From: Candidatus Hydrogenedens sp.
GTDB lineage: Bacteria; Hydrogenedentota; Hydrogenedentia; Hydrogenedentales; CAITNO01
DNA length: 64,000 nt
NCBI GenBank assembly: GCA_012522755.1
Contig: JAAYJV010000048.1
Location: 80,425-144,424 of the forward strand
Reading direction: 5' to 3'
The notes below the pieces were generated by a model that did not search any database, was not told the DNA's origin, and was given only the letters and a program-made list of their open reading frames with translations. This document shows positions 26,947-47,815 of the stretch, piece by piece. The position numbers were made by a program, and so were the translations under genes. Within the stretch, counting starts at the first letter, position 1, and every line of letters begins with the position of its first letter.

Positions 26947-29900
26947 TTAAAGCGAAGTGTCTGAAAAGGTCATCAGCTCTACAAGGCGCCTGGACAGTTC
27001 GAGGGATTCGTTTTTCATCAACCAGGAAGCAAGGGCCTCAAGATCAGTCTGCATCATGGCCTTTTCTTCTTTCGTCCCGGGAAGAATTTTCCGGACATTT
27101 TCCAGATTTTCCTCGCCCTCCAGATAGCGGGCGGCTGTCTGATAGAACAGCAAAAGAGGGGCCTGGTCTTTATCTGAATTTTCAGGAAGGTGAAGCCCGG
27201 CCAGTTCCTTAAACTGTGCTGAAGTGAAGAGTTCACGGCCTCTTTCCTCAAAGAGGCTATAGAACAGGTTCGTGATTTCACTGTTCTCCGGATGCCTCTT
27301 TTGAAGGTCCCGCCAGAAGCGCACTCTGTCATTGAAATCCCGACTGAGCTTTACAGTGACATACAATGCGCGGGCAACTTCGGTGGCGTATCGACCTTCG
27401 AGCAATTGTGTGAGCCCTTCTTCGGCTGTTGTATACTCTCCGGCACCCGTAAACTGCTGGCTGGCTTTCAGCGAAAGTCGATCAGGATCCGGACTGTATT
27501 CAGAAGCCAGGAGCAATATATTTCCTGCAGTATGATGCAATCCTTTTCCTGAAAGATAAAAAGCTTCTTTTTCCAGTTCTTCAAAAATAAGAATATGATT
27601 TTCCGGATACTCGGCTGCAAGTGTTTTTATCTTCTCTGTTGTTTCTTCGATGGAATTGTTCTCCGCCTGGCTGATGGTATGGCTGATCATGATCTTCGGA
27701 TCAGTGGGATCCAGGGCATATGCTTTGTTATATGCTTCTTTCGCCAGGTTTTGTTCACCTTGCAAATTCAGAGCCATAGCCAGATAGAGGAAGAAAATGG
27801 CCTGATCCGGCACCTCGTCTGTCAAGGACTTCCAGAAGTCATGTTTTTCCTCGGGTGAAAAGCCATCAGACAAGAGAATGTGCGCCCGGGTGGCCGTGTC
27901 GGTGTCGCCGGGATGATTGTGCAGATAGTCTTTGTATATTTGCAGTGCTTCTCTTTTCATGCCCCCTCTTTCACAGGCTTCAATCTTCAAGAGGGAAACC
28001 CCTTCTTTTCTTTCAGGGGCTCGTGCTTCCAGTGCGTCAAGAGCGATGAGACAGCGTTCTGTTTCCCCGTCATAGAGACTCAGTCTGGCGATCAGTTCGA
28101 TAATTTCCAGGAGCCTCTCTTTTTCTGAAGGATCTTTTGTTTCTATTTCCAGTAGGCCATCAAGTGATTCGTCAAGCAGACTGAAGTCAATCAATCGGCC
28201 TGCAGGCAAAAGCCTGTCCATGGATCGATTGGAAAGAATCAATTGTGCTTTAGCCAGGAGAATAATCTGTTCCTCAGTCCCGAAACGTTGGGCGGCATTA
28301 AAAAAGAGCGTATTATTCAATTTCTCGTGCTCAGTATGGTGATAAAAAACGGGATCAGGGAGGCACTCAGCCGTGTAAAACAAGGGATTGGGTATTTCGT
28401 TGTCCACAGAAGCAAAAGACATCAAATGAGAAATGTCTTCTGGAAGATGCACCTCATAAAGCCCACGGAATTGTGATGCATACTCTTTTGGAACGGCAAT
28501 ACCGGTAAAATGGCCTCGTGCAATACGAAGACTTTCATCCAGTCGGGGCCCCAATACCTCATAGATAGGAAAGAAATAACGTAAAATGTCACCTTTCTGT
28601 TCTGTAACAGGGATATGCAGCAGTTGCGAAAAATCGTAATTCAAAAGCAGACTGTCGTAGCAGTGTAAGATATGACTGACATCGGAAGTGCCATCAAATT
28701 CAGCCATCAGATATTTCGCACGACTGTGAAAAATACCTATTTCAGAACTTGAACAGGCTGCTATCAATCGATACAGACTTCTGAGCTCGCTTTCCTGGCG
28801 GTCAGGTTTCGAGGAAGGAAGTGAGAAAAAAGTCCATCCGCAATGCTCTCTTTCAGAAAAAGGAAGTGCTTTTCGCGGGGCTTGGATGCAGCTCTTCATG
28901 ATCGGGCGTAATTGCCGCGTCTGATACCAGCGGAGAAGAGGCATAGGTACCAGGATCAGGCTCGCACAGAGTAAAAGAACGATTAGAGCCCCTTTGTAAT
29001 GTAAAGGACGGATGTGTCTGTTTCTCCGGATTCGTTTGATAAGAGTGTCAATCAAAATCCCTGTAATCAGAAAGGGGAAGAAGGAGAGGTGAAAAGTATG
29101 TCTGGAGACAGCCTGCAGTGCCGTATAACCCAGAATATAAGCGATGATCAGAAAGGTGAATAGGGCTGTACCGGGAGTTTGCAGTGCCAACAGAATAAAA
29201 ACCACAATAGCCAGAGGAAGTCCCGCATGATGCATGAAAAAAGCAAATGACTGATGGAGACGGTTGAAAAACTGATGAAGAACCGTAGGCTCTGAAAAGA
29301 AAGGAGGGAATGCATCTGTATACCTGAGGATCCGCCAGATAGCCGTCCAACCGCGGGTAGCCAGATCAGCCGGATAAAGGAAGACAGACTCTTGCAACCA
29401 GCGTTGCCCGGCAAGAGCCGCATCTTCATTATCAAAAAGTTGTGGTGTGGTCAGATCGGGAGTGCGTGCAGCGAAATCAGCAAGAACAGCGAAGGTATAG
29501 TAGTCGGCACCGGAGATCAGGCTCTGATAGGGAGCCTGTTTGATACCCAGTTGATCCATTCTGTCCCGTGCGAATCCCTGAACAAGCACATGTTGTGGTT
29601 GAGCGTTTCCATCAAAATGTTGGAACATGGGAGAGGCAAGGGCCAAAAATATACAGAGATAGAGAAATACGGGTGACAGAGTTTTCCACAGTGCCCGGTC
29701 TGTTTTCAGGAAAACAGGAAAAATCAGAATCAAAGCACAGAGGGGAAAAAAAATCAATGCATCCTGACGAAAACCCATGAAAATCCCGTGAACTGCACCC
29801 AGTGCCACTGCGCCCAGGATTTGAAAGCGCAGTGAGGGACGTCGGATAAAGAGCCAGAGCAACAGGCAAAAAAGCGTAATCGTGAAAGGAGCTTTACTGA

Positions 29901-30429
29901 AATCGCGCAGATCAAGAAGAAGCATGAATACGGCTGGTGAAACAGTGAGGAGGCAGGTGGATATAACGGCCAGACTCCGGGACAGAAAAAATCGAAAAAG
30001 AAAATACAGGGAAAGGGCATACCATCCCAGAAAGAGGGAGATAAAAGGCTCCAGTGTTCTCCAGGAGACACCGAATATGCGCCAGAAGAGACCGACAGCA
30101 TAGAGCAGATAACGGTGATAGAAGGCAACTGAGGATCCAATAGTCTTAATGTCTGCGGGTAGCTGATCTGTACAAAAGCTTTGCTGATCCCCTTTTAAAA
30201 AAGCCCAAAGTTCAGGATATTCACTGCGATCGGGATTAATAAAACCGTGACCGGCCGCTATCATTACGGCTGGTCCGTAAAGGTCTTCTATGGTGAAGAC
30301 AGCTGATTTGTCAGTACGAAGCGATTCAAAGTGCGCCAGCCCGGCCACAAATCCAAAGACAAAGAGAAGGAACGCAATAATCCACTCTTTGCGGCGATCA
30401 GAAAATGTGAGGGAGCTGGAATGATTCAT
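26947..30429 (-). CDS. Polytopic membrane-TPR fusion protein, paralog 1 (subfamily A); GT-C/TMTC/PMT-like architecture, function unknown
   Basis: The 1160-aa ORF is intact. A short basic N-terminal tail (…SDRRKEW) precedes TM1. About 12-13 predicted TM helices are present, with a roughly 150-aa loop between TM8 and TM9. Motifs HFESL, ELYGPAVMIAAGHGF, GFRQD, QPQHVLVQGFARDRMD and SGADYYTF are conserved across the array. A soluble middle domain of about 250 aa is followed by a C-terminal TPR-rich domain of about 450 aa (for example AYNKAYALDPTDPKI). The CDS itself is near certain, but the functional call is inference. Confidence 0.5.
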   Translation of the reverse strand: MNHSSSLTFSDRRKEWIIAFLLFVFGFVAGLAHFESLRTDKSAVFTIEDLYGPAVMIAAGHGFINPDRSEYPELWAFLKGDQQSFCTDQLPADIKTIGSSVAFYHRYLLYAVGLFWRIFGVSWRTLEPFISLFLGWYALSLYFLFRFFLSRSLAVISTCLLTVSPAVFMLLLDLRDFSKAPFTITLFCLLLWLFIRRPSLRFQILGAVALGAVHGIFMGFRQDALIFFPLCALILIFPVFLKTDRALWKTLSPVFLYLCIFLALASPMFQHFDGNAQPQHVLVQGFARDRMDQLGIKQAPYQSLISGADYYTFAVLADFAARTPDLTTPQLFDNEDAALAGQRWLQESVFLYPADLATRGWTAIWRILRYTDAFPPFFSEPTVLHQFFNRLHQSFAFFMHHAGLPLAIVVFILLALQTPGTALFTFLIIAYILGYTALQAVSRHTFHLSFFPFLITGILIDTLIKRIRRNRHIRPLHYKGALIVLLLCASLILVPMPLLRWYQTRQLRPIMKSCIQAPRKALPFSEREHCGWTFFSLPSSKPDRQESELRSLYRLIAACSSSEIGIFHSRAKYLMAEFDGTSDVSHILHCYDSLLLNYDFSQLLHIPVTEQKGDILRYFFPIYEVLGPRLDESLRIARGHFTGIAVPKEYASQFRGLYEVHLPEDISHLMSFASVDNEIPNPLFYTAECLPDPVFYHHTEHEKLNNTLFFNAAQRFGTEEQIILLAKAQLILSNRSMDRLLPAGRLIDFSLLDESLDGLLEIETKDPSEKERLLEIIELIARLSLYDGETERCLIALDALEARAPERKEGVSLLKIEACERGGMKREALQIYKDYLHNHPGDTDTATRAHILLSDGFSPEEKHDFWKSLTDEVPDQAIFFLYLAMALNLQGEQNLAKEAYNKAYALDPTDPKIMISHTISQAENNSIEETTEKIKTLAAEYPENHILIFEELEKEAFYLSGKGLHHTAGNILLLASEYSPDPDRLSLKASQQFTGAGEYTTAEEGLTQLLEGRYATEVARALYVTVKLSRDFNDRVRFWRDLQKRHPENSEITNLFYSLFEERGRELFTSAQFKELAGLHLPENSDKDQAPLLLFYQTAARYLEGEENLENVRKILPGTKEEKAMMQTDLEALASWLMKNESLELSRRLVELMTFSDTSL

Positions 30430-30663: not shown

Positions 30664-32871
30664 TCAGTTGATATAACCCAGCGCTTTTAAAATTTCTATC
30701 TCTAAAGGATCTACTGAAATCGCCGATTCTTGAGATTCTTCTTCCGGGCCCAAGCTGTTGAAAATCCTTGTCTGTTTCTCCATGTGCTGATCCAATAATT
30801 GACGAAAGGCTTCCATTTTCTCCGGATGTGTTTCGCTAAGGTCAACAAGTTCTTCCCGGTCTGATTGGAGGGAGAAAAGCTTTTCACCGTCCGTATCGAA
30901 ACGCCTGTACTTCCAACCGTCCTGAATCACACTCGCGTTCTCCTGTTTCCACGCCAGAAAAGAAAAAGTGGGAGTCGGGTTCAGCTTGCCGCCATTGAAC
31001 AGGGTCAGAAGGTTTCTCCCTTGATACACAGGCGGTACGGCAATTTCAGCCATAGCCGGAAGAGTGGCGGAGAGATCGGTGAGTGTCACTTCCTCTTGAC
31101 GTACAGAGGCGGGTATTCCGGGGCCGCTCATGATCAAAGGAATATGAATTTGATGCTCGTAAGGAACGAAGCTGTGTCCATAAAGCCCATGTTCGTGAAG
31201 AGCTTCTCCATGATCGGAAGTGAAAATAACAATTGTATTTTCCAGAAGATTCAGGTCAGCAAGTTTGTTATAAATTTTTCTGAAATTGTAATCTGCATAT
31301 GCAATAGCGGCATCGTATTGCTCTGACTCATTTGCTTCGGATGAAATTTCCCAAATCTCTTTGTGGGCTTGATCATCAAGAGGGCAAAGAGTCGGGTGCG
31401 GTTCCATCCTGTCGTGCACTTCCATAGTATGCACATATAAATAAAAGGGTCGATCCCGGTGTTTTTCCAGAAATTCAAAGGTACATTGCTCTGTTTTGTT
31501 GCATACCTCTGGTCCGTCGAGAGGATTTATCTGAAACAGTTTGGAAAACATTTTCTGAGAAAGCGATACGGGAGGCGAATAATTGTTCTGGGAAATCGCA
31601 CAAGTTTCATAGCCTTCCTGTCGCAACAAGGCGGGATAGAAGGGAGGTTCATTTTTATAGTGAAGGCCGTGAGAGCAGGTAAAACGATGAGCTGCACTGT
31701 CGATTCCCGAATGCAAAGACATCATGGAAGCTTTTGTGCAGGTTTCATGGGAACGATATTCTTGAAAAAGACTTCCTGATTTTGCCCATTCTTTTATGAA
31801 AGGTGCTGTGGGACGGTCATAACCGTATGCATCCAGGCGGTTTGCTTTCAAAGCATCAACCAGATAAACAAGAATATTGGGTTTCCGTGTTTCTTTTTTA
31901 TCTTGACGGGCTTCATAGATGGAGGGGTTGCTCCAGAGTACGGTTTGCCCGGCCTGTTCTGAAGATGCGGACAGTGTGACCTCCACTTCCTTTCCTGCAT
32001 AGGCCTTGAGACTGTATTGTTTATCGAGCCAGCGGTGATTGTTTTCAAGTTTTTCCTCAAGGAGCGATGTTGTAGCGCCATCACAGGTTATTGAAACTTG
32101 AAAGGTAACCGGGCTGTGTTCTTCCACAAAGTTCATCCCTGTCGCAAAAACAGGATTTTCGGGGAGTGTTAATCGGTACCGGAAAGATGCAGGTGTGTGG
32201 GCATAGATAACCTGTCGGAACTCTCCTACCATATATATATTTTTACAGCCAACAGGAATATCAGCGAAGTTGGAAGATTTTTTGCGCAACTCTATTTTGT
32301 GGATTTCAATCGTTGCCTGTCCATCAGTTTTGATTCTTAAACCATCTATGATATCAAGACGATTCCAGTACTCCAGGTTATCCAGACGAACGATATAACT
32401 GCGCGTCTGTCCGTCGGCAACCACTGGAAGCTTGAAAAAGCAATTATCAAAATGCTCCATTTCAAGCCAGTGTTTTAAAGAAAATCTCCAGTAAAAGCTG
32501 AGCTCCGATACACCCTCGACAGCCGCAGTGATTATCATCGCGTCAAAGTCCGGGGCGTATACATCGATATCTTCATGAAGAGAAAGAGTGCTTGCTTCCG
32601 CAGTATTCCAATGAAGTAAATCTTTCTTAATGGTGACCGTGTCTTGTTTGAAATCCGTGTTCTCATGCTCAAGGTCCGGCCAAATGACAACAGAGGTGGA
32701 AAAAGAAAGATCGCGGGAGCCGTGATGCAAGATTTCCGCATCGTCAATATGATCGTCCAGACGGTAACAGGAAAGCAGCTTGTCTTCATTACCAAATGCG
32801 GTGACGGAGACGCATACAATGATGAGTGAGAAAAAACAATACCATAGAACAGGATCCTGTTGCCGCTTCAT
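30664..32871 (-). CDS. Sulfatase-family (alkaline-phosphatase superfamily) protein lacking the CxPxR formylglycine motif; novel ~330-aa N-terminal domain
   Basis: Sulfatase hallmarks are present ('ILVYLVDALKANRLDAYG' and 'IVIFTSDHGEALHEHGLYGHS'). At the position of the sulfatase signature C-x-P-x-R the sequence reads 'ETCTKASMMSLHSG' (C-T-K-A-S). An N-terminal signal or anchor is present (VLWYCFFSLIIVCVSVTAFG). Confidence 0.6.
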   Translation of the reverse strand: MKRQQDPVLWYCFFSLIIVCVSVTAFGNEDKLLSCYRLDDHIDDAEILHHGSRDLSFSTSVVIWPDLEHENTDFKQDTVTIKKDLLHWNTAEASTLSLHEDIDVYAPDFDAMIITAAVEGVSELSFYWRFSLKHWLEMEHFDNCFFKLPVVADGQTRSYIVRLDNLEYWNRLDIIDGLRIKTDGQATIEIHKIELRKKSSNFADIPVGCKNIYMVGEFRQVIYAHTPASFRYRLTLPENPVFATGMNFVEEHSPVTFQVSITCDGATTSLLEEKLENNHRWLDKQYSLKAYAGKEVEVTLSASSEQAGQTVLWSNPSIYEARQDKKETRKPNILVYLVDALKANRLDAYGYDRPTAPFIKEWAKSGSLFQEYRSHETCTKASMMSLHSGIDSAAHRFTCSHGLHYKNEPPFYPALLRQEGYETCAISQNNYSPPVSLSQKMFSKLFQINPLDGPEVCNKTEQCTFEFLEKHRDRPFYLYVHTMEVHDRMEPHPTLCPLDDQAHKEIWEISSEANESEQYDAAIAYADYNFRKIYNKLADLNLLENTIVIFTSDHGEALHEHGLYGHSFVPYEHQIHIPLIMSGPGIPASVRQEEVTLTDLSATLPAMAEIAVPPVYQGRNLLTLFNGGKLNPTPTFSFLAWKQENASVIQDGWKYRRFDTDGEKLFSLQSDREELVDLSETHPEKMEAFRQLLDQHMEKQTRIFNSLGPEEESQESAISVDPLEIEILKALGYIN

Positions 32872-33168: not shown

Positions 33169-36100
33169 TTATGGCAAAGAGACCCAAATGGCCATCAGTG
33201 CTGCCAGGCGGGCCGACTGTTCATGCCTTTCCTCTTTGGTCAGTGCAGATGCAAGAGATTCAAGATCGGCTGTCACCAGTGCTTTTTCCTCTTCCGTGAC
33301 AAAAAAGTTTCTTTGGATACTATCCAGATCTTCCTGTCCCTCCAGATAGCGGGCTATTGTCTGATAGAGCTGTAAAATGGGCCTTTGTTCTTTTGACATC
33401 CTTTGTGGAAGCTTCAGACGGCCCAATTCTTCCAGGGCCGCTGAGCTGAAGAGTTCATGGACTCTTTCCTCATGAAGCAGGTATAACAAGTCTGCTGTTT
33501 GGCTGTTGTCAGGGTGTGCCTCCAGAAGTCCGAGCCAGAAGTTTACACGCTCAGGAAAATCACGGCTGAGTTTGATTGTCACGTAAAGTGCCTGAGCGGC
33601 CTCTTCTCCATAATTGCTTTGAAGAAGTTCAAGAAGCCCCTTTTCAGCCTTTTCATAGTCTCCTGCGCCCGTAAACTGTTGATACGCTTTAAGTGTGAGC
33701 CGATCCGGATCGTCGCTGCAGTCGGCGGCCAGAAGCAACAGAGTCCCGGCCTTTTGATGCTGTTCTTTTTCGGAAAGGTAAAATGCTTCCCGTTCCAGAT
33801 GTTCAAAAATAAGGAGATCATTGTCCGGATAATCAGCTGCAAGTGTTTGAATATTTTCCACAGTTTCTTCTATCGGATTCTTGTCCGCTTGTGCAAGAGT
33901 ATGACAAATGCGGATCTTGGGGTTCTCTGGATCCAGGGCAAAGGCTCTGGCGTATGATTCTTTTGCCAGAGACTCTTTGTTGACAAGATCCAGTGCCATA
34001 GCCAGATAGAGATGGAAATGGGCCTGATCCGCAAATTGATCTGTGAGTGAGAGCCAGAAGGCCTGTTTTTCCTCTGAAGAAAAACCATCGGATAAGAGGG
34101 CATGCACCCGTGCAGCTGTGGATGTGTCTTCAGGATGAGTTCTGAGATAATCTTTGTATAGCTCCAGAGCCTCTTGCCTCATTCCGGCTCTTTCACAGGC
34201 TTCAATTTTCAAGAGAGAAATATTCCCTTTTCTTTCAGGAGCCCGTATTTCCAGAGCATCAAGAGCGGCCAGGCAATGTTCTGTTTCATCGTTGTAGAGG
34301 CTCAGTTTCGCAATCAGTTCCAGGCTGTCCAGAACCATCTCTCTTTCTGAATGATCCGTGGTTTTGATTTCCAAAATACCTTCCAGCGATTCATCAAGCC
34401 GGTTGAGGTTTATCAGTTTTTGGGCGGCCCAGATTTGATGAGTGGGATCTGTGGACAGAATCAATTCAGCTTGAGTAAATAAAATGCTTTGCTCTTCACT
34501 TCCGAAACGGCGGGCCGCTTGAGAAAAAAGTGTATTATTCACCTTCTCGTGTTCAGTGTGGTGATAGTAAACGGGATCCGGCCGGCATGCCGGTGTGTAA
34601 AACAAGGGACTGGGTATTTTGTCGTCCAGAGAAGTAAAGGCAATCAAATGGCTAAGGTCTTCAGGAGGATGAACCTCATAGAGTCCCCGGAAGTGCGAAG
34701 AAAATTCCTTTGGGATGGCAATACCTGAGAAATGACCGCGCGCCAGAACTAAAGCGTTGTCCGATCCCGGCCCGAATAATTCATATACAGGGAAAAAATA
34801 GCGTAACACCTTCCCTGTCTGTTCTGTTTTCGGAACACGGAGCAGTTGTGAAAAATTAAAATTCAAAATTTTGCTGTCATAGCAGTGCATAAGATGTGTG
34901 ATATTACAGGAGCCGTCAAATTCAGCCATCAGATATCTGGTACGCACATTCCAGAGGCGCAGTTCAGGGCTGAAAGATGCAGCCAGCAGCCTGTAAAGGC
35001 TTTTGATCTCACTGATACTGTTGTCGCTCTGAGCTGTCTCGAGACTGAAAAAAGTCCAACCGACGCGATCTTGTTTTGTATAGACCAGAGGGCTTCGCTG
35101 AGATTGAATGGCGTTTTCAAAAAGTGGAGCAAGTTGCCGGGTCTGATACCAACGCAGAAAGGGTATGGGCACAAGGATCAACGCTGTGCAGAACAAAAGA
35201 GTGGCCAGAGCGGCTGTATAGCGCTTTATCGGTAGAGGAAAGATAATTGACTGAGCAGTTCTTTTTTTCCTGATTTGCTTTATTACTGTCTCAATCAAAA
35301 ATCCAGCAATCAGAAAAGGGAAAAAAGAGAGATGAAAAGTGTGTCTGCAGACCACTTGTAAGGCTGTGTATCCCAGAATATAGGAGGTAAACAGAAAGAT
35401 GAACAGCGCTGTGAGCGGCGACTTCAAGGCTACCAGGAAAAAGGCCAGGATAGCCAAGGGAAGTCCTGCACGATGCATGAAAAAAGCAAAATAACGGTGA
35501 ACTTGATTGAAAAATCTATACAGTGCGTCAGGTTCGGAAAAAGAGGGTGGGAAAGCATCGGCATACCTGAGGATTCGCCAGATGGCTGACCAGCCACGGC
35601 TAGCCAAATCCGCTGGATGAAGAAAAATCGCCTCTTTCAGCCAGCGTTGCCCCGCTGTAACAGTATTTTCGTCATCGAAATGGACGGGTATGGACTGACC
35701 GGGATTGCGGGAAGCAAAATCGGAAAGCATGGAGAAAGTATAGTAATCCGCACCGGAGAGTGGGTGATGATAAGCGGCTTCTTTCATGCCCAACAGATCC
35801 ATTCTATCGCGAGCAAATCCTTGAACAAGCACATGCTGCGGTTGGGAACCTCCTTCCATGTGCTGAAGCAAGGGAGTGGCAAGAATGGCAAAAAGACTGA
35901 GATAGATAAGAAGGGGCGACAGACTTTTAAAACGCGCGACATTTGTTTTAAGAAAGACAGGAAATATCAGTACGCACATAGAGAGAGGAAGGAATATGAG
36001 GGCATCCTGACGAAAGCCCATGAAAATGCCGTGAAAAATTCCCAGTAACAGGGCGCCTCTTATTTGATAGCGCAAAGAGGACGCTGAAATAAGAAGCCAG

Positions 36101-36672
36101 AGCAGTATACAAAAGAGCGTGATAGTGAAAGGGGCCTTACTGAAATCGCGCAAATCCAAAACAAGCATGAATACAGCCGGCGAAACAGTTAAGAAAAGGG
36201 CGCATAGAAAAGCCAGGATGCGTGAGAGAAAAAAGCGAAATAAAAAATAGAGAGAAACAGCATACCATCCGAGAAAGAGGGAGATGAAGGGTTCCAAATT
36301 CTTCCAGGAGATACCGAAAATACGCCAGATGAGTGCCACGGCATACAACAGATAGCGGTGATAAGAGGCGACAGCGGAAGGGCGTTGTTCAATATTGGCC
36401 GGGAGGCTGGCGGGAGAAAAACTCTGTTTATCCCCCTCTAAAAACTGATGAAGTTCAGGATATAAGACATAATCAGGAACGATAAAACCATGACCGGAGG
36501 CCATCATCACAGCGGGACCATAGAGGCCGGGTATCAGAAAGACAGCAGATTTTTCGCCGCGAAGTGCCTCAAAGTGCGCCAGCCCTGTCAAAAACCCGAA
36601 AAAGAACAGAAGAACTGCGATAGTCCATTCTTTACGATGGGGAAAATATGTGCCGGCTCGGAGAGTATTCAT
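33169..36672 (-). CDS. Polytopic membrane-TPR fusion protein, paralog 2 (subfamily A)
   Basis: The 1167-aa product has the same architecture and conserved loop motifs as paralog 1. Its N-terminus is MNTLRAGTYFPHRKEWTIAVLLFFFGFLTGLAHFEALR. Confidence 0.5.
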   Translation of the reverse strand: MNTLRAGTYFPHRKEWTIAVLLFFFGFLTGLAHFEALRGEKSAVFLIPGLYGPAVMMASGHGFIVPDYVLYPELHQFLEGDKQSFSPASLPANIEQRPSAVASYHRYLLYAVALIWRIFGISWKNLEPFISLFLGWYAVSLYFLFRFFLSRILAFLCALFLTVSPAVFMLVLDLRDFSKAPFTITLFCILLWLLISASSLRYQIRGALLLGIFHGIFMGFRQDALIFLPLSMCVLIFPVFLKTNVARFKSLSPLLIYLSLFAILATPLLQHMEGGSQPQHVLVQGFARDRMDLLGMKEAAYHHPLSGADYYTFSMLSDFASRNPGQSIPVHFDDENTVTAGQRWLKEAIFLHPADLASRGWSAIWRILRYADAFPPSFSEPDALYRFFNQVHRYFAFFMHRAGLPLAILAFFLVALKSPLTALFIFLFTSYILGYTALQVVCRHTFHLSFFPFLIAGFLIETVIKQIRKKRTAQSIIFPLPIKRYTAALATLLFCTALILVPIPFLRWYQTRQLAPLFENAIQSQRSPLVYTKQDRVGWTFFSLETAQSDNSISEIKSLYRLLAASFSPELRLWNVRTRYLMAEFDGSCNITHLMHCYDSKILNFNFSQLLRVPKTEQTGKVLRYFFPVYELFGPGSDNALVLARGHFSGIAIPKEFSSHFRGLYEVHPPEDLSHLIAFTSLDDKIPSPLFYTPACRPDPVYYHHTEHEKVNNTLFSQAARRFGSEEQSILFTQAELILSTDPTHQIWAAQKLINLNRLDESLEGILEIKTTDHSEREMVLDSLELIAKLSLYNDETEHCLAALDALEIRAPERKGNISLLKIEACERAGMRQEALELYKDYLRTHPEDTSTAARVHALLSDGFSSEEKQAFWLSLTDQFADQAHFHLYLAMALDLVNKESLAKESYARAFALDPENPKIRICHTLAQADKNPIEETVENIQTLAADYPDNDLLIFEHLEREAFYLSEKEQHQKAGTLLLLAADCSDDPDRLTLKAYQQFTGAGDYEKAEKGLLELLQSNYGEEAAQALYVTIKLSRDFPERVNFWLGLLEAHPDNSQTADLLYLLHEERVHELFSSAALEELGRLKLPQRMSKEQRPILQLYQTIARYLEGQEDLDSIQRNFFVTEEEKALVTADLESLASALTKEERHEQSARLAALMAIWVSLP

Positions 36673-36702
36673 TTGCGTCTGTGCCTGTTTGAAAACTGTG
36701 TC

Positions 36703-36712
36703 ATTTTAACAG
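36703..36712 (-). promoter_or_regulatory. Putative extended -10 element (TGTTAAAAT) of paralog 2
   Basis: On the coding strand, GGTCTGTTAAAATGACACAG lies about 30 nt upstream of the ATG at 36672. Confidence 0.35.
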
Positions 36713-36853
36713 ACCTGAGAGATACAGACAAAGTAAAGACAAGCTTAAATCCCTCCGTTGAATGAGAAAGCGGCTGCATGAAGCTCTGTATTTTGAAGTA
36801 CTTCAAAGGATTCTTGCATCCTTGAAAAAAGCCCGTAAGCAGGTACAATATTG

Positions 36854-39800
36854 TTATGGCGTGAAATTTAAAAAGGTCATTACCGCTGTCAATCGTTCAG
36901 ATAGTTCATTGACTCCCTGCAAGCCCAGAGAAGAAGCCAAAGCTCTAAGATCGGCGGCAATCATTTCCTTTTCTTCTTCAATACCGGAGAAATATTTCTG
37001 GATACTCTCCAGATCTTCCTGCGCTTCGAGGTAGCGGGCCATTGTCTGATAAAGGAAGAAAAAGGGAGTCTTTTCTTTGACTGTATTTTCAGGAAGGCTC
37101 AGGCTTGCCAGTGTCTTCAGATCAGCTGTTCTTAACAATTCTCTTGCCCTGTCGTCATACATGGTATACAACAAACTTGTTATGGTGCTGTTGTCCGGGT
37201 GTGCCTCTTGCAGTCCAAGCCAGAAGTCACGCCTGTCAGAGAATTCTCGGCTGAGTGTGACTGTTACATAAAGTGCCTGAGCAGCTTCCTCTGCATAGCT
37301 GCTGTCAAGAAGTTTTACAAGTCCCTTTTCCGCTCTTTCGTAATCTCCCGCACCTGTAAACTGTTGACTGGCTTTCAGTGAGAGGCGTTCTGAATCCGGA
37401 CTGTATTCGGCCGCCAGAAGCAACAAAGCCCCCGCTTTTTGATGCAATCCTTTTTCTGAAAGATAAAATGCCTCCCGTTCCAAACGCTCACAAATAAGGG
37501 GACGATGCTCCGGATGATTGGCTGCAAACTCTTTTGTGTTTTGCCCGATTTGCTCAACAGAATCGTCTTCTGCTTGAGCAATGGTGTGGCTGATCATAAT
37601 CTTCGGATCCTGGGGATCCAGGGCAAAAGCTTTGGCGTACGCTTCTTTTGCCAAAGATTCTTTGTTTTTCAGATCGAGAGCCATGGCCCGATAGAGCTGG
37701 AAATGCCCCTGATCCGGGGAGTGATCTGTGAGTGACAGCCAGAAGGCATACTTTTCGTCGAGAGAAAATCCATCTGATAAAAGGATGTGGCCCCGGGTGG
37801 CTGTGGCTTTGTCATCAGGAAATTCTCTGAGATAGTCACCGTATATCTCCACAGCTTCCTCTTTCCAGCCAACTCTTTCACAGGCTTCAATCTTTAACAG
37901 GGATGTGGTTATTCTTTGTTCAGGGGCAAGTGTTTCCAAAGCCGTGAGAGCCGTCAGACAACGTCCTGTTGCATTGTCATAGAGACTGATTCTTGCAACC
38001 AAATCCAGAATTGCCAGAAGTTTTTCTTTTTCTGAAGGATCGGTTATTTTGATTTGCAACAGGCCATCCAGTGACTCATCCAGGCGGTTAAGATTTATCA
38101 ATCTTTGAGCAGCCACCATTTGATCCGTGGGTTCATCCGATAAAATCAGCTGCGCCTCAGAAAAAAGAATAGTCTGTTCATCGCTTCCGAAACGGTGGGC
38201 CCCTTCGGAAAAAACAGTATTTGTCAGTTTATCGTTCTCAACATGGTGATAACATACAGGGTCAGGTAAGAGATCCGGTGTGTAAAACAAAGACCTGGGT
38301 ATTGCCTCGTCCACAGAAGTGAAGGCGATCAAATGGCGATGCTCTTGAGGAAGGTGAATTTCATAGAGTCCCCGGAAGTGTGAAGCGAATTCTTTTGGGA
38401 CAGCGATGCTGGTAAAACGTGTCCGTTTAAAAAGAAACCTTTCCTCCAGTTCGGGTCCCAACACCTCGTATACAGGAAAAAAATATCGTAAAACCTGTCC
38501 TGTTCCTTCTGCTTTTGGGATACGCAGTACTTGCGAAAAATTAAAATTCAAAATCGGGCTGTCGTAATTGTGCAACAGACAGGTGATCTCGGAGGAACCA
38601 TCAAATTCAGCCATCAGATATTTTGTCCGGGTATGGAAAAGATTTATTTCAGAATTGAAGCAAGCGGCCAGCAGACTGTAGAGAGCTGTGAGCTCAGTTC
38701 TTGCATTGGATCTTTTTGCTGTCTTCAGAGTAAAAAAAGTCCAGCCACAGTGGTCCTTTTCGCTGAAGAGCAGTGGCGTTCTATGGGCTTGGATACAGCT
38801 GTTGATAACAGGGCGAATCTGTCGGATCTGATACCAGCGTAAAAGAGGCACAGGCAAAACAATCAGAGCAATACAAAGCAGGAGAACACCCAGAGCCGCT
38901 TTATATTGTTTTTTGGGATGTACTGTTGAGTGAGTTTGTTTTCTTTTCCAGATTTGCTTTATAGCGGACTCAACCAGAAAAGCCGTAATCAGAAAAGGAA
39001 AGAAAGAGAGATGGAAAGTATGTCTGCTGGCTGTTTGCAGTGCTGTATATCCCAGAATATAAGAGCTGCACAGAAATATAATCAAGGCTGTACCAGGTGA
39101 TTTCAGAGCCACCAGAACAAGAGCCAGGATGCCCAGGGGAAGTCCTGCGCCATGCATAAAATAAGAAAAAGAACGGTGGAGCTGGTTGAAAAAGCGGTAA
39201 AGGCCTGCAGGCTCAGCAAAAAAAGGAGGGAAAGCATCGGCATATCTGAGAATTCGCCAGATGGCCATCCAGCCCCGGGTCGCCAGATCTGCGGGATAGA
39301 GAAAAACAGCCTCTTCCAACCAGCGTTGACCAGCGGCGACAGCATCTTCATCATTATATATTTGTGGCACAGTCAGGTCAGGAGTGCGCGAAGCGAAATC
39401 AGAAAGAAAAGCGAAGATATAAAAGTCGGAACCGGAGAGAAGGCTCTGATAAGATGCTTCTTTTATGCCCAGTTGGTCCATTCTATCACGTGCAAAACCC
39501 TGAATAAGCACATGTTGCGGTTGTGCGGCCCCTTCCATACGTTGAAGCATGGGGGAGGCGAGGACAAAAAAAACACTGAGGTAGAGAAACAGGGGAGCGA
39601 GGGATTTCCAGAGAGCAATGTCTTTTTTTAAAAAAACAGGAAATATCAGTACGCAAATACACAGGGGAAGGAATATGAGGGCGTCCTGACGGAAACCCAT
39701 GAAAATACCGTGAAGTGTGCCCAGTAAGAGAGCACCGACAATCTGAGAGCGCAGCGGCGGTCGTTTTATAAAAAACCAGAGCAGCAGACAAAAGAGCGTT

Positions 39801-40351
39801 ATCGTGAAAGGGGCTTTGCTGAAGTCGCGCAGTTCCAGAACTACCATGAATACAGCCGGCGAAACAGTCAATAGAAAAGCTGAAAAAAAAGCAAGACAGC
39901 GTGAGAGGAAATATCGCAAAAGAAAGTAAAGAGAGAGGGCGTACCATCCCAGAAAAAGAGCAATCAAAGACTCCAGACTTTTCCAGGAAACTCCGACAAT
40001 ACGCCAGTAGATACCTACAACATAGAGCAGATAGCGATGATAAGAAGCTACTGATGAATGGCTTGTTTTAATCTCCTCCGGGAGCTGGTCGGGAGATAAA
40101 CTGTCCTGATTCCCTTTTAAAAAATTCTGGATCTCCGGATGCTGTGTGCGGTCAGGGGTAATAAAACCACGACCAGAGGCAAGCATCACAGCAGGGCCGT
40201 AAAGATCTGTGATAGGAAAAATAGCAGATCGGCTATGGCGAAGAGCGTCAAAGTGTGCCAGTCCCACCAGAAATCCGAAGATGAAAAGGCTGAACGCAAT
40301 AATCCAGTCTTTGCGACGATCAGACAATATGCGGGGTCTCGGATGAGTCAT
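36854..40351 (-). CDS. Polytopic membrane-TPR fusion protein, paralog 3 (subfamily A)
   Basis: The product is 1165 aa, with N-terminus MTHPRPRILSDRRKDWIIAFSLFIFGFLVGLAHFDALRH. The upstream leader is nearly identical to that of paralog 1 (ttattctaacagactttggaagag). Confidence 0.5.
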   Translation of the reverse strand: MTHPRPRILSDRRKDWIIAFSLFIFGFLVGLAHFDALRHSRSAIFPITDLYGPAVMLASGRGFITPDRTQHPEIQNFLKGNQDSLSPDQLPEEIKTSHSSVASYHRYLLYVVGIYWRIVGVSWKSLESLIALFLGWYALSLYFLLRYFLSRCLAFFSAFLLTVSPAVFMVVLELRDFSKAPFTITLFCLLLWFFIKRPPLRSQIVGALLLGTLHGIFMGFRQDALIFLPLCICVLIFPVFLKKDIALWKSLAPLFLYLSVFFVLASPMLQRMEGAAQPQHVLIQGFARDRMDQLGIKEASYQSLLSGSDFYIFAFLSDFASRTPDLTVPQIYNDEDAVAAGQRWLEEAVFLYPADLATRGWMAIWRILRYADAFPPFFAEPAGLYRFFNQLHRSFSYFMHGAGLPLGILALVLVALKSPGTALIIFLCSSYILGYTALQTASRHTFHLSFFPFLITAFLVESAIKQIWKRKQTHSTVHPKKQYKAALGVLLLCIALIVLPVPLLRWYQIRQIRPVINSCIQAHRTPLLFSEKDHCGWTFFTLKTAKRSNARTELTALYSLLAACFNSEINLFHTRTKYLMAEFDGSSEITCLLHNYDSPILNFNFSQVLRIPKAEGTGQVLRYFFPVYEVLGPELEERFLFKRTRFTSIAVPKEFASHFRGLYEIHLPQEHRHLIAFTSVDEAIPRSLFYTPDLLPDPVCYHHVENDKLTNTVFSEGAHRFGSDEQTILFSEAQLILSDEPTDQMVAAQRLINLNRLDESLDGLLQIKITDPSEKEKLLAILDLVARISLYDNATGRCLTALTALETLAPEQRITTSLLKIEACERVGWKEEAVEIYGDYLREFPDDKATATRGHILLSDGFSLDEKYAFWLSLTDHSPDQGHFQLYRAMALDLKNKESLAKEAYAKAFALDPQDPKIMISHTIAQAEDDSVEQIGQNTKEFAANHPEHRPLICERLEREAFYLSEKGLHQKAGALLLLAAEYSPDSERLSLKASQQFTGAGDYERAEKGLVKLLDSSYAEEAAQALYVTVTLSREFSDRRDFWLGLQEAHPDNSTITSLLYTMYDDRARELLRTADLKTLASLSLPENTVKEKTPFFFLYQTMARYLEAQEDLESIQKYFSGIEEEKEMIAADLRALASSLGLQGVNELSERLTAVMTFLNFTP

Positions 40352-40382
40352 CTGCAGCGGCTTTCTTATGAAAAACTGCCTT

Positions 40383-40392
40383 ATTCTAACAG
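40383..40392 (-). promoter_or_regulatory. Putative extended -10 element (TGTTAGAAT) of paralog 3
   Basis: On the coding strand, CTGTTAGAATAAGGCAG lies about 30 nt upstream of the ATG at 40351. Confidence 0.35.
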
Positions 40393-40474
40393 ACTTTGGA
40401 AGAGGTGATAAAGGGAAACAGAAGGTGTGCAGGGCACAGAAAAAAAGGCTGTGACAGCATAAGTCTCAAAGCAG

Positions 40475-43400
40475 TCATAAAATACTGTCTGAAATGTTTT
40501 TAAGAATCGCTATTCGCTCAGATATTTCCGAATTTGGGTCTGTTGCTAAAAGAGAAGCGAGGACTTCCAAATCAGAGAGAATAGTTTTCTGAATGTTTTC
40601 CAAACTGGCTGACAGAGCCTGAATTTTGTCTAATTGGTCCCGGCCTGTTAAATAGCGGGCAAGTTGCGGATATATCAGGCAAAAAGCATTGTCTTGAGCC
40701 TGGATCTCTTTGAGGCCGGAGAGATCGGCGAGTTCTTCCAGGCGTGCTGATCTGAAAAGTCCGCGCATAGTATCTTCATATACAGAGCTGAGTATTGAAG
40801 AAATGGCTTCATTATCCGGGTGACTGTTTTGAAGGTCCAGCCAGAAATTCAATCGATCAGGAAAGTCCCGGTTCAACTTTGCAGTTATATAAAGTGCTTG
40901 TACAGCTTCGCGAGAACAGGAACTTTCGAGAAGTGTGAGCAATCCATCTTCAGCTTTCTGGTAATTACCAGCTCCCGTATACTGTTGATACGCCTTGAGC
41001 ATAAGAGAATCGCGATTGTTGCCATAGTCTGCGGCCAGAAGCAGTAGGCTCGCCGCTTTGTCATGCTGTCCTTTCTCACTGGAATACGAGGCTTCTTTTT
41101 CCAGACGCTCAACGATGAAAGGATGCTCTTGCGGGTGAAGTGCGGCCAGCTCCATGATTCTATTTTTTGTGTCTTCAATAGCCGTGTTTTCAGATTCTGC
41201 CAAGGTGTGACAGATTATATTCAGGAGATCTTTCGGATCCAGATTATAGGCTTTTCGATAGGCGTCTTTGGCAAGTTCCTCTTTGTCCAGCTGGTCAAAA
41301 GTCATTGCAAGATAACGGAAAAAATAAGCCTGATCTTCGTTGTTTGCGATAAGGAGTTGCCAAAAAGCGCATTTCTCTTCGGGAGACAAAAAGTCGGACA
41401 TGAGAATATGAGCACCTGAGGCGACAGACTGGTCGTTGGGAAAGCGAAGAAGGTATTTCTGATAGACTTCCAGAGCTTCCTTTTTCAAACCTGCTCTTTC
41501 ACAGGCTTCTATGCGGAAAAGAGCAAATTTTGAATATTCTTCCGGTGCGAGAACCTCCATTGCATCAAGGGCCACCAGACAGCTTTCCGTATCATTGCGA
41601 TAAAGACTCAGTTTTGCAATCATCTCCAGATTATCCAGCAGCAGGTGTTTTTCCAAATGGTTTGCGGGTTTGACAGACAACGCCCCTTCCAGTGCCACAT
41701 CCAAGCGGTCCAGAGTTATAAGATTATGGATAGCTGCAATCTGTATTGCAGGCAAATCAGACAGGATTACCTGTGCTTCAGCAAAGAGCACGGCTTCTGC
41801 TTTTGTACCGAAATGGAGTGCTGCGGCTGAAAGATCAGCATTGCAAAATTTCCGGTCTTCAGTGTGATAATAATAAAGAGGATTTGGAACAGGATCGATA
41901 GTGCAGAACAGTGGGCCGGGTATTTTATCATCTGTGCAAGAAAAGGATATGAGATGCGTCAACTTTTCTGAAAGCTGCACTTCATAAAGTCCTGAAAAAT
42001 ATGGTGCCAGCTCTTTTGGAACGGCAATGCCTGTGAAGTGGTTTCGTCCAAAGGCTGGAGCTTCATGAATTTCAGGTTTCAATAATTCATAGACAGGAAA
42101 AAAATAACCTACTGTCTTTCCGGATCGCAGGGGCTTGGGGATACGAAGTAATTGTGAGAAGTTGTTGTCTACAGTCGATCTGCTATAGAGGTGTATCAGA
42201 TGATCGAGGTCAGCCACAGCCTCAAATTCAGCCATCAGATATTTTGTTCGTGAATGCCATAGCCTTAATTCTTTGTTGAAACATGCAGCCACCAGCTTAT
42301 ATAGACTCTTGAGCTCACCTGGGTTGCTGTCGGTTTCGGAAGATTCAAGTGAAAAGATCGTCCATCCCAAACAGTCTTGTTTTGAAACCGATAGTGGAGT
42401 TCTCGCAGCATGAATACAGTTTTCAATAATCGGGCGCAGCTGTTGAGTTTGATACCAGCGCAGGATCCATAAAGGGAAAAAAACTATACAGAAGAAGGCA
42501 AGCAGTGTGCCCCAGATAATATAAGGATTCCTTTTCTGATTCAGGTTGATAGCAGAACCGGGATTCTTCAGTGCCCATAGCTTCTTTATAAGTGCCTCCA
42601 GACAAAAGCAGAGCACGAGTATAGAGGTAAATGAGAGATGAAAGCTGTGCCGGGAAAAAGCCTGCAGTGATGTATATCCCAGGACATAAGATGTTGCCAG
42701 AAATAACCACAGCGCTTGTGCAGGAGATTTCCTGACCAGAATGACAAGTGCGATCATGGCAAGCAGTACACCAGCGTAATGCATGGCAAACGCAAAAGAA
42801 CGATGAAGATTGCAGATATATTTATGGATTACTGTAGGCTCTGGCAAAGAAGGCGGGTAGGCGCCGGAGTATCTGAAACTCTGGCACACTGCAGCCCAGG
42901 CACGTGTCACCATGTCAGCAGGGAAGAGGAGCAATGATTCCTGCAGCCAGCGTTGTCCGACAGCCTCGGCGTTTTTGTCATCAAAAACATCTGGTACGCT
43001 CAGATGCGGGCTGCGGTCGGCGAAGCTGTAGAGCATTGCAAAAGTATAATAGTCAGCACCGGAGAGCATGGTGTAATAGGGTGCTTCTTTTATGCCCAAA
43101 AGATCCAGACGATCTTTGGCAAAGCCTTGTACAAGTGCATGTTGTGGCTGAGCGGCACCTTCCATACGTTGAAGCAGGGGGGAGGCTAAGAGAAAGAAAA
43201 GGCTGAGATAGATAAGCAGCGGGAACAGTCGCTTCCATCGCGAAGCACTCTGTTTAAGCAGAATCGGGAAAGCCAGGACACAAACACTCAAGGGAAAAAG
43301 TATTAACATGTCCTGGCGGAAGCCCAGGGCAATACCATGAACTGTTCCCAGTACAGTTGCGGCGATGATCTGAAACTGAAGGTGGGTACGCTTATTGGAT

Positions 43401-43981: not shown

Positions 43982-44026
43982 GAGCTCACATTCCAGTAGA
44001 AAACAGTCTCATTCCATGGATTTTAT

Positions 44027-44036
44027 TTTAATAAAA
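44027..44036 (-). promoter_or_regulatory. Putative -10 element (TTAAAAT) of paralog 4 with B-type conserved leader
   Basis: The coding-strand leader reads TTATTAAAATAAAATCCATGGAATGAGACTGTTTTCTACTGGAATGTGAGCTCATG. Confidence 0.3.
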
Positions 44037-44167
44037 GTTTCGTTTCGATCTTGGCGCCATGGACCCTGTGTCAATTGTTTCGTCCTGCAGGCACCTGAAA
44101 TCTTCGACTGCGACTCAAAGAATCCTTTGTTTATATAAACAGCGTCCATGTGGCTATTATAAAGACA

Positions 44168-47677: not shown

Positions 47678-47710
47678 TTGTTACCGTTCTGGAATAAGCA
47701 GCAATGGGTT

Positions 47711-47720
47711 ATTTTAACAG
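47711..47720 (-). promoter_or_regulatory. Putative extended -10 element (TGTTAAAAT) of paralog 5
   Basis: On the coding strand, GCCTGTTAAAATAACC lies about 35 nt upstream of the ATG at 47677. Confidence 0.35.
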
Positions 47721-47815
47721 GCCCTTCACTGAGAGAGCAATGGGATAAACGAGGTGTCGAGATTGTTACGATACTTTCTTTGAAGTGTAAATTGCCTTTC
47801 GCCCTTGTGTCCGAC

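Follow-up and report, generated by a model that had tools for sequence, protein, structure and literature searches.

Among described members of the alkaline-phosphatase superfamily, the phosphoethanolamine transferases EptA/LptA, EptC and MCR-1 operate with a Thr nucleophile and Zn, and in MCR-1 that residue, Thr285, has been seen in its phosphorylated form. EptA and LtaS carry a polytopic N-terminal domain of five transmembrane helices; LtaS uses phosphatidylglycerol directly and has a different motif around its Thr, and YejM/PbgA (LapC), held in the membrane by a five-helix anchor, is mostly a regulator. The S1 sulfatases (e.g., choline sulfatase, 6fny, and GlcNAc-6-sulfatase, 5g2v) employ a Cys/Ser nucleophile, and the second sulfatase signature, PS00149, covers the sulfate-binding Lys and His. 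In MCR-1, residues E246, D465 and H466 are Zn1-type ligands, and H478 is the second-site His with E468 as its partner (PMC5216409). In 4,058 formylglycine (FGly)-sulfatases, an Arg at +4 of the formylglycine position is 99% conserved (PMC5066984).

The target gene considered here lies in a 64-kb window (the whole stretch of Candidatus Hydrogenedens sp. DNA analysed, 64,000 nucleotides), and sequence comparison places its product in a large uncharacterised branch of the same superfamily. The 735-aa open reading frame was confirmed at its position (Table 1), and the three strings quoted in a previous sequence-only reading of this DNA (ILVYLVDALKANRLDAYG, ETCTKASMMSLHSG and TSDHGEALHEHGLYGHS) were all found in the encoded protein. 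The identical NCBI entry is named 'sulfatase [Candidatus Hydrogenedens sp.]'. Matches to Pfam Sulfatase PF00884 (aa 331-605, E 6e-40) and SGSH_C (aa 560-698) bear out the assignment of the C-terminal part to the sulfatase/alkaline-phosphatase superfamily made in that reading. The overall fold is of the sulfatase type, including the C-terminal sulfatase subdomain, and the best overall matches in sequence and structure are S1 sulfatases. The target has a single hydrophobic segment, at aa 1-27, which is a low-pLDDT helix in the AF2 model; about five such segments are found in clade members P0074, P0075, P0077 and P0081. A sequence scan around the gene gave no promoter or terminator sites above shuffled expectation.

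Table 1. Features of the target gene and its surroundings, in coordinates of the 64-kb window
Feature	Coordinates	Strand	Basis or remark
Target gene, predicted exported alkaline-phosphatase-superfamily enzyme of Thr type, 735 aa, annotated 'sulfatase'	30664..32871	-	ORF; PF00884 E 6e-40; NCBI identity
Putative N-terminal signal peptide or signal anchor, aa 1-27, MKRQQDPVLWYCFFSLIIVCVSVTAFG	32791..32871	-	Sole hydrophobic segment
Beta-sandwich domain 1, aa 35-200	32272..32769	-	AF2 model, HMM
Beta-sandwich domain 2, aa 205-322	31906..32259	-	Adjoins catalytic domain; C-terminal end is the conserved G-Q-x-x-L-W-S-x-P
Catalytic alkaline-phosphatase/sulfatase-fold domain with sulfatase-type C-terminal subdomain, aa 330-705	30757..31884	-	
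First metal-ligand strand L-V-D339-A-L-K (D-D or D-Q in sulfatases)	31846..31863	-	Clade alignment
Nucleophile motif E-T-C-T379-K-A-S-M; T379 at the formylglycine position, C378 the variable -1 residue	31723..31746	-	Clade alignment
H481-T-M-E484-V-H486-D, two conserved His	31411..31431	-	Clade alignment
D553-H554-G-E556-x9-H566 motif	31174..31215	-	Spacing as in MCR-1 D465/H466/E468/H478
Module-terminal L-K-A-L-G-Y-I-N motif	30667..30690	-	L731, G732 and Y733 invariant in homologue set A1
GT-C-fold membrane glycosyltransferase-like protein with beta-rich middle domain and TPR, 1160 aa, paralogue 1 of 6	26947..30429	-	Directly downstream of target
Five more tandem GT-C/TPR paralogues: 33169-36672, 36854-40351, 40475-43981, 44168-47677, 47816-51343	33169..51343	-	ORFs
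SGNH/GDSL-like protein, 526 aa, head of array	51368..52948	-	Weak NonGDSL and Lipase_GDSL_2 matches

The clade is large, with 1,163 cluster representatives matching the target at E<=1e-30, and residue counts were taken from 170 aligned members, with six true sulfatases for comparison (five in the PS00149 region). Aligned with the Cys of the true sulfatases is position 379, which is Thr in 166 of the 170 members and Ser in two; T379 is the predicted nucleophile. The preceding position varies among the 170 relatives (W 68, C 27, K 18). The pentapeptide matching C-x-P-x-R in the alignment is T379-K-A-S-M, with the Pro at +2 kept in most clade members and position 383 (+4), an Arg in 6/6 true sulfatases, occupied by Met in the target and by V/H/M in the clade. 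The sequence-only reading had held that CxPxR is absent and that the protein is unlikely to be a sulfatase. The absence stands, and a formylglycine sulfatase is indeed very unlikely, but the segment it had aligned, C-T-K-A-S, is one residue out of register; the Cys it had focused on, C378, is the variable -1 residue (most often Trp in relatives) and has no bearing on the argument from maturation. A conserved [CS]x[PA]xR is found nowhere in the target protein; the one stretch that fits the minimal pattern (SAAHR, 392-396) does so by chance, for the homologues read ..AHG there, in a GIDSxAHG segment. The possibility of a sequencing error in the CTKAS region, raised in the same reading, is ruled out by conservation of E-T-C-T-K-[PA]-S across 15 homologues from independent assemblies.

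The further hallmarks of sulfatases are likewise replaced. The PROSITE/SulfAtlas sulfatase signature has no match in the target but does match the controls P0023 and P0025; all three SulfAtlas signatures (patterns from PMC5066984) fail, and each true-sulfatase control passes some. Against the PS00149 pattern, G-[YV]-x-[ST]-x(2)-[IVAS]-G-K-x(0,1)-[FYWMK]-[HL], the target reads G-Y-E-T-C-A-I-S-Q-N: clade-wide, [ST]-[EQ]-N stands in place of G-K-[WM]-H (the sulfate-binding pair G-K-x-H), with E/Q substituting for the Lys that all five aligned true sulfatases possess. The first Ca-binding pattern, ending in [DE]-[DQ], breaks at D339-A340, for position 340 is A/T/C/S in 170/170 and never D/Q; D339 itself is present in 169/170, and the second Ca-binding Asp of sulfatases is absent from the clade. 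The second pattern, D-[NHQ]-G after a T/S-x-D strand, is matched by the invariant T-S-D553-H554-G555, but it is common to sulfatases and EptA/LtaS and so does not discriminate. At +13 from the D-x-G Asp, the sulfatase Lys gives way to H566 in 170/170, and choline sulfatase has a Lys aligned to this residue. Set against the S1 sulfatases, the target has Thr at the nucleophile position and is without Arg at +4, G-K-x-H, Lys at +13 and a second Asp.

The pattern that takes their place is familiar from the Thr-nucleophile members. Besides H566, both D553 and H554 are conserved in all 170 members, and E556 is in 149; H566 at +13 and E556 at +3 from D553 have the spacing of H478 and E468 in MCR-1. 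Two candidates for the equivalent of MCR-1 H395 emerge from the sequence alignment: H481 (165/170), which is clade-specific and missing from true sulfatases, and H486 (167/170), also a His in 6/6 true sulfatases. NCBIfam EptA/phosphoethanolamine-transferase models match aa 333-580 (E 1e-11 to 1e-12), but no score reaches NCBIfam's curated threshold for EptA, MCR, CptA or YejM (the best, EptA model PRK09598, has 42.5 bits vs 561). The active-site loops of the AF2 model have pLDDT <50. The metal centre, as predicted from the sequence together with the identity of its metal, would consist of D339, T379, D553 and H554, with help from H481/H486 and from H566, itself held by E556, so that the active-site layout of the EptA/MCR-1 and LtaS transferases would be built on a scaffold nearest to the S1 sulfatases in shape and C-terminal subdomain. 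The EptA/MCR-1/LtaS-type kinship suspected in the sequence-only reading is therefore supported, T379, D339 and the D553/H554/E556/H566 pattern all having their match in Thr-nucleophile enzymes. The likeness to EptA/MCR-1 extends to the acidic ligand on strand 1, to a conserved His ahead of D-H-G-E-x9-H that is a candidate counterpart of MCR-1 H395 and to an extracytoplasmic place in envelope decoration, which for the target is predicted. Unlike EptA/LtaS, the target lacks a polytopic membrane domain, and a transferase role is for that reason not established above a hydrolase role; from LtaS/LtaP (lipoteichoic acid synthase/primase) and the phosphoglycerol transferase GacH it differs in having only the signal/anchor segment plus CBM-like modules.

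In the first ~300 aa, Pfam finds no family (only a sub-threshold InhA-like_MAM match, E 0.003-0.006), in agreement with the sequence-only reading, which had recognised none in the first ~330 aa. Domain 1 is all-beta in the AF2 model, with block pLDDT mostly 70-95, and the N-terminal region as a whole matches the CBM51-like (CBM51/NPCBM) beta-sandwich fold, although membership of the CBM51/NPCBM sequence family is not found with Pfam. Traced with local HMMs across 176 proteins, domain 2 accompanies the catalytic domain in 158, and domain 1 matches 97, in each case alongside domain 2. That reading had described the motif as lost and the N-terminal domain as gained. Neither description can be kept: the absence of CxPxR and the conserved beta-sandwich pair are shared across a very large old clade, and no loss or gain event in the target is called for. 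The Thr motif and the sandwiches are thus placed by sequence comparison as ancient clade traits. Glycan binding by the sandwiches is probable from their modelled fold. At the other end of the protein, L-x-x-L-G-Y falls within 12 aa of the C-terminus in 152/170 clade members and recurs at the end of each module in multi-module proteins. This internal occurrence, closing each alkaline-phosphatase (AP) module, weakens the idea of a TPR-docking C-terminal peptide, and LxALGY more probably caps the module structurally. In P0059, LxALGY directly precedes a TPR array.

Paralogues of ~1165 aa, six in tandem, surround the target, which separates the first copy from the second. Compared with paralogue 1, the five further copies are 49-63% identical across their full length and 52-67% identical in the N-terminal 720 aa. 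A GT-C membrane fold was found for the partner encoded directly downstream (26947-30429), whose membrane domain has no Pfam match even at E<=10 and which has no profile match in the PDB outside the TPRs. With 21 database hits the family is a rare one; D176, D223, D309 and D355 are invariant in it. Judged from the modelled fold, the flanking paralogues represent a novel family of GT-C-fold glycosyltransferases with TPR; from the GT-C O-mannosyltransferases of the PMT/TMTC type, which also have TPR, they differ by an extra beta-rich middle domain and by a membrane domain that matches no Pfam family. Around orthologues of the target with >=36% identity, synteny of SGNH, AP enzyme, FG-GAP giant protein and GT-C/TPR genes is conserved in Hydrogenedentota: the FG-GAP gene follows in 8/8 loci, the GT-C/TPR gene follows in 5/5 loci that reach far enough, and the SGNH gene is upstream in 4 loci. 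The window's own 526-aa SGNH protein has 33-34% full-length identity to neighbours of target orthologues (E 4e-92 and 5e-102). Natural fusions join PMT_2, (TPR), beta-sandwich and Thr-AP domains (P0056, with PMT_2 at 42.6 bits, P0036 and P0041), P0059 combines an AP domain with a TPR array, and in another lineage the second gene downstream of the L011 homologue encodes a PMT-family protein. By BLAST, the fusion membrane domains are not significantly similar to the window's GT-C proteins, apart from one TPR hit, so the argument from fusions runs through the fold class (PMT_2 being a GT-C family) and not through orthology. A genetic tie between the AP enzyme and GT-C membrane glycosyltransferases is thus supported in three ways, by synteny, fusions and the PMT-family neighbour, and the proposed fit of the gene to a glycosylation array gains from the GT-C fold of the flanking paralogues and from the repetition of the pairing as synteny and fusions. 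Physical or functional coupling of the AP enzyme with the GT-C/TPR proteins may well follow.

Based on this evidence, the target is best understood as an exported Thr-nucleophile metallo-phosphotransferase or phosphodiesterase acting with GT-C enzymes on an envelope glycoconjugate, a reading to which we give a probability of roughly 0.55. The protein would be exported through its N-terminal signal peptide or anchor and would hold a glycan with the beta-sandwich pair, and phosphoryl transfer would proceed through a covalent phospho-Thr intermediate, a phosphodiester-linked head group (e.g., phosphoglycerol or phosphoethanolamine) being put onto the glycan or cleaved from it. The target may share one pathway with the adjacent GT-C/TPR membrane glycosyltransferases and the SGNH-type protein (a presumed esterase or acyltransferase), the three jointly assembling and decorating a glycoconjugate of the envelope or surface; the ~2000-aa FG-GAP/fn3 surface protein, encoded between the AP and GT-C/TPR genes in related genomes, is a possible carrier or target. 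The phosphoryl chemistry is a prediction. Given the Thr, the EptA/MCR-1-like metal site and the GT-C tie, it is most likely that phosphate-linked groups on surface glycans are handled and that sulfate is not removed. Retention of sulfatase activity with an unconventional nucleophile, be it Thr379 directly or Cys378 after an unknown maturase, would agree with the S1 sulfatases as best overall matches and with the features still shared with them: a C-terminal subdomain of sulfatase type, H486 and, in most of the clade, the Pro at +2. Yet C378 is unconserved, and other residues stand in place of the Arg, the Lys/His pair, Lys at +13 and the second Asp. The scanned ORFs of the 64-kb window include neither an FGE nor an anSME gene, and oxidation of Thr would give a ketone instead of formylglycine and has never been demonstrated (PMC5066984); we consider such a sulfatase highly improbable.

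The active-site evidence would serve equally well for a secreted degradative phosphodiesterase or phosphatase whose CBM-like modules bind foreign phosphorylated glycans (teichoic-acid-like or phosphomannan-like) and which frees phosphate or head groups as nutrients, its place among GT-C genes reflecting co-regulation or chance. The target by itself lacks a membrane domain, modules of the CBM type are characteristic of degradative enzymes, distant relatives have no GT-C neighbours, and the window also carries GH3, GH123 and 3-keto-disaccharide hydrolase genes. These glycoside hydrolase genes, however, are >10 kb from the target and outside the low-GC module, and free scavenging would not easily account for the GT-C/TPR, SGNH and FG-GAP synteny kept at all orthologous loci examined, or for the covalent joining of such enzymes to PMT_2 membrane domains and to TPR arrays. 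Degradation therefore appears unlikely, though it retains some weight. A non-catalytic protein comparable to YejM/PbgA, which binds a lipid or glycan intermediate and modulates or scaffolds the GT-C/TPR enzymes, is improbable: D339, T379, D553, H554, H566 and H486 are conserved in 166-170 of 170 divergent members, which argues for catalysis, and the target differs from YejM/PbgA (LapC) in its fully conserved catalytic residues and in having GT-C/TPR proteins as partners. As an extension of the phosphotransferase/phosphodiesterase reading, SGNH, Thr-type AP, FG-GAP/fn3 giant protein and GT-C/TPR could constitute a previously undescribed bacterial system in which a GT-C enzyme, guided by its TPR, O-glycosylates a giant adhesin at the surface (or assembles some other surface glycan) and the AP-fold enzyme installs or edits a phosphodiester substituent on the glycan. 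We regard this as a speculative and rather doubtful proposal. If true, it would represent a bacterial equivalent of O-mannosylation by PMT/TMTC-type enzymes with subsequent elaboration of a phospho-glycan or, alternatively, of the pairing of GT-C mannosyltransferase and AP-fold phosphoethanolamine transferase in the GPI pathway, and the six-fold GT-C/TPR amplification would diversify acceptor or donor specificity.

Lastly, our analysis has importance for annotation. The target is publicly named "sulfatase" or "arylsulfatase A-like enzyme", and the clade it represents is large. Metagenome studies take PF00884 hits directly as "formylglycine-dependent sulfatases", and one of them inferred degradation of sulfated polysaccharides in Hydrogenedentes (PMC9723792); SulfAtlas has warned that Thr is found in half of the PF00884 seed (PMC5066984). 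The clade can be set apart by a simple filter that asks for T-x-P-S, for [EQ]-N where sulfatases have K-x-H, for a His at +13 and for an LxALGY end. An EptA/MCR-like active site set in a sulfatase-like scaffold could help to clarify how nucleophile and specificity are switched in the alkaline-phosphatase superfamily, and the link of the AP enzyme to a novel GT-C/TPR family, through synteny and fusions, points to an uncharacterised pathway of glycoconjugate decoration in poorly known phyla.

The 735-aa target protein, listed as "sulfatase [Candidatus Hydrogenedens sp.]" in the NCBI entry for the identical protein and as "arylsulfatase A-like enzyme" by JGI, is understood here as a non-sulfatase of the alkaline-phosphatase (AP) superfamily that probably uses threonine, as a specialist would expect given the motif. 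Its C-terminal part has the sulfatase fold that the sequence-only reading had assigned to it: in Pfam, residues 331-605 match PF00884 (Sulfatase; E 6e-40) and residues 560-698 match SGSH_C, the C-terminal subdomain of sulfatases, and the three peptide strings quoted in that reading are all found in the protein. FGly-sulfatases are defined by PS00523, PS00149 and calcium-binding patterns, with a signature Arg that is 99% conserved according to SulfAtlas (PMC5066984). In the target, PS00523, PS00149 and Ca-binding pattern 1 all fail to match; of the control proteins, true sulfatases taken from the same set of hits, every one carries some of these signatures. G-Y-E-T-C-A-I-S-Q-N replaces the sulfatase G-Y-x-T-x-x-[IV]-G-K-[WM]-H, the Lys of which is E or Q throughout the clade of Thr-type relatives, and the second Asp of the sulfatase D-D/D-Q pair is Ala in the target. 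The residue 13 positions after the Asp of D-x-G, Lys in sulfatases, is His in 170 of 170 clade members. A CxPxR or CxAxR hidden elsewhere in the protein was rejected, the sole match to a minimal [CS]x[PA]xR (SAAHR, residues 392-396) being unconserved, and the motif is thus missing as originally noted. No FGE or anSME gene was found within the 64-kb window. Because six features defining the S1 sulfatases were tested and none was found, the target is placed by its sequence outside that family, and the earlier judgement that it is unlikely to be a sulfatase stands. Thr occupies the nucleophile position in 30 of the 59 PF00884 seed sequences, for which a sulfatase role cannot be assumed (PMC5066984); Thr-type non-sulfatases within PF00884 are hence a general phenomenon already known.

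Pairwise alignments of the target with choline sulfatase leave a one-residue ambiguity at the nucleophile, which is settled by the family-wide data. Fifteen full-length homologues (34-40% identity) have E-T-C-T-K-[PA]-S in common, a 27%-identical clade member has A-T-W-T-K-V-S, and further relatives show S-S-W-T-R-P-A, S-T-W-T-K-P-A and A-P-W-T-L-P-S; in these last a Gly follows the Thr at +10, which matches the spacing in the C-x-P-x-R...G of true sulfatases found by the same search. When 170 clade members are aligned with 6 true sulfatases, position 378 is W (68), C (27), K (18) or another residue in the clade and variable in the sulfatases, and position 379 is T (166) or S (2) in the clade and Cys in 4 of 6 sulfatases. 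Pro at position 381 is present in 105 of 170 clade members (Ala in the target) and all six sulfatases; position 382 is Ser in 162 of 170, and S/T/A/C in the sulfatases; position 383 is V/H/M in the clade and Arg in 6 of 6 sulfatases. By these counts T379 occupies the formylglycine position and C378 of C-T-K-A-S, taken previously as equivalent to the sulfatase Cys, is its variable neighbour, the register having been off by one.

The active site is predicted to work like that of EptA, MCR-1 and LtaS. In MCR-1, Glu246, Thr285, Asp465 and His466 are the Zn1 ligands, and the second site consists of His395 and His478, in contact with the phospho-Thr, with Glu468 hydrogen-bonding His478 (PMC5216409). 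Matched to these are D339 (169/170 clade members), T379 (166/170), D553, H554 and H566 (170/170 each) and E556 (149/170), whereby the 0/+1/+3/+13 spacing of D553/H554/E556/H566 is identical to that of MCR-1 residues 465/466/468/478. The equivalent of His395 is likely either H481, which is clade-specific (165/170), or H486, which is present in 167/170 and also in sulfatases. The analogy with EptA/MCR-1/LtaS drawn in the sequence-only reading is therefore apt for T379 and the motif spacing, but it does not extend to membership: the target is not one of these families, since it lacks their 5-TM domain, matches the NCBIfam EptA and phosphoethanolamine-transferase models far under their cutoffs (E 1e-11 to 1e-12) and, unlike them, has a sulfatase-like scaffold. 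Other clade members have ~5 N-terminal TM segments, as in LtaS and EptA.

When 1.84 billion representatives were searched exhaustively with HMMER, the threshold of E<=1e-30 was passed by 1,163 proteins and that of E<=1e-10 by 35,315. Full-length-similar genome matches are mostly from Hydrogenedentota, the others from Nitrospiraceae, Latescibacterota and one bin that carries the label Bathyarchaeia. Relatedness limited to the catalytic domain is seen in Aminicenantes, Acidobacteriota, Myxococcales, Spirochaetales and Gammaproteobacteria. The contig labelled Candidatus Bathyarchaeia archaeon (DATKVG010000212.1, locus L011) encodes a bacterial-type YidC with periplasmic domain and is probably a mis-binned bacterial contig. 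With family-built HMMs, and in a set biased towards full-length matches, the second N-terminal beta-sandwich was detected in 158 of 176 proteins, always 0-30 aa ahead of the catalytic domain, and the first in 97 of 176, never without the second. Homology thus marks the region as a family feature, not as the novel domain that the target gene had been thought to have gained. The family ends in L-x-A-L-G-Y, which in 152/170 lies no more than 12 aa before the C-terminus; proteins with several modules have it at each module end (P0030, P0059, P0119). Some relatives have two Thr-type AP modules per polypeptide: the 1302-aa protein at L010:7897-11805 has two Sulfatase stretches, and P0030 and P0119 have two LxALGY ends each. 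Adjacent sets of two or three AP paralogues are found at several loci (L002, L010, L011).

Three independent lines, namely synteny, fusions and an unrelated contig, tie the target's family to the GT-C/TPR proteins, glycosyltransferase-fold membrane paralogues that flank it. Among orthologues of at least 36% identity at eight loci, an FG-GAP/fn3 gene follows the AP gene in 8/8, the window's GT-C/TPR protein has a homologue downstream (30-36% identity, E down to 1e-142) in 5/5 sufficiently long loci, and the SGNH/GDSL-like gene of the window has one upstream in four. Other Hydrogenedentota also encode the SGNH protein, whose first ~270 aa belong to no recognisable family, next to their AP gene, with 33-34% identity across its whole length. 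In the fusions P0056, P0036 and P0041, a PMT_2 domain at the N-terminus (in P0056 at 42.6 bits, over the Pfam cutoff) precedes the beta-sandwich and Thr-AP region, in P0041 with TPRs also ahead of that region; in P0059, a very large TPR array follows the AP region. At L011, the next two genes after the homologue are another of AP type and, beyond it, a PMT gene that Pfam recognises. Nowhere in the 64-kb window is there a homologue of the FG-GAP gene, whose product may serve the pathway as substrate or carrier; the gene may have been lost or relocated in this genome.

Coordinates of features in the window and of the FG-GAP/fn3 gene at loci (L) carrying target homologues
Feature	Position	Strand	Remarks
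Target ORF	30664-32871	-	intact; 735 aa
L-x-A-L-G-Y motif of target	30667-30690	-	conserved end of essentially every clade AP module
Six tandem GT-C-fold + beta-rich domain + TPR paralogues	26947-51343	-	1160-1175 aa
SGNH protein	51368-52948	-	526 aa; N-terminal hydrophobic segment; weak SGNH/GDSL (NonGDSL) signature
SGNH, GT-C/TPR and AP block	26947-52948		GC 0.45-0.47
FG-GAP/fn3/Flg_new_2 protein	L001:12339-18437; equivalents L004-L009, L012		~2000 aa; between AP and GT-C/TPR genes
Two large proteins	10890-13457 and 20644-24258	+	7 Bact_surface_Ig-like repeats each
ORF	8489-10741	+	750 aa; no Pfam match at E<=0.001
ORF	61572-63989	-	805 aa; no Pfam match at E<=0.001
PcfJ-like protein	14581-16029	-	outside SGNH-GT-C/TPR-AP module
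SLOG cluster4 (LDcluster4) protein	1436-2068	-	outside SGNH-GT-C/TPR-AP module

The target lies between the first and second of the six tandem ~1165-aa paralogues, all on the same strand and 49-67% identical. Their membrane domain has no Pfam family, only 21 relatives of the family were found in a 5.8-billion-protein database, and the six-fold amplification of this novel GT-C family is worth a separate finding. The GC content of the block, compared to ~0.52-0.53 in both flanks, suggests an island of distinct composition that was possibly acquired. The Bact_surface_Ig-like proteins are near GH123, GH3 and 3-keto-disaccharide hydrolase genes, in what looks like a separate glycan-degradation neighbourhood.

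The analysis establishes the fold, the pattern of conservation, the failure of the sulfatase signatures, the EptA-like spacing of the motif, the fold of the partner proteins, the synteny and the fusions. On top of these we propose an exported enzyme in which Thr379, acting at a metal centre that probably holds Zn or Mn, would attack a phosphate ester to form a phospho-enzyme; a transferase would then hand the phospho group to a glycan acceptor, a phosphodiesterase to water. Glycan binding would fall to the beta-sandwiches, and the GT-C/TPR enzymes, the SGNH protein and the target may share one envelope or surface glycoconjugate. Because the target has no polytopic membrane domain of its own, it may be either a transferase or a hydrolase; this is the main uncertainty of the proposal, and the chief rival explanation, a degradative phosphodiesterase, builds on it.

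No description of the clade or of its pairing with GT-C/TPR proteins was found in the literature searched. Two things are new: an architecture that joins CBM-like sandwiches to a hybrid AP domain ending in LxALGY, and the conserved coupling of this architecture with a novel GT-C/TPR family. The analysis corrects a widespread "sulfatase" annotation that metagenomics takes at face value, and outlines an uncharacterised module for envelope modification that is open to testing.
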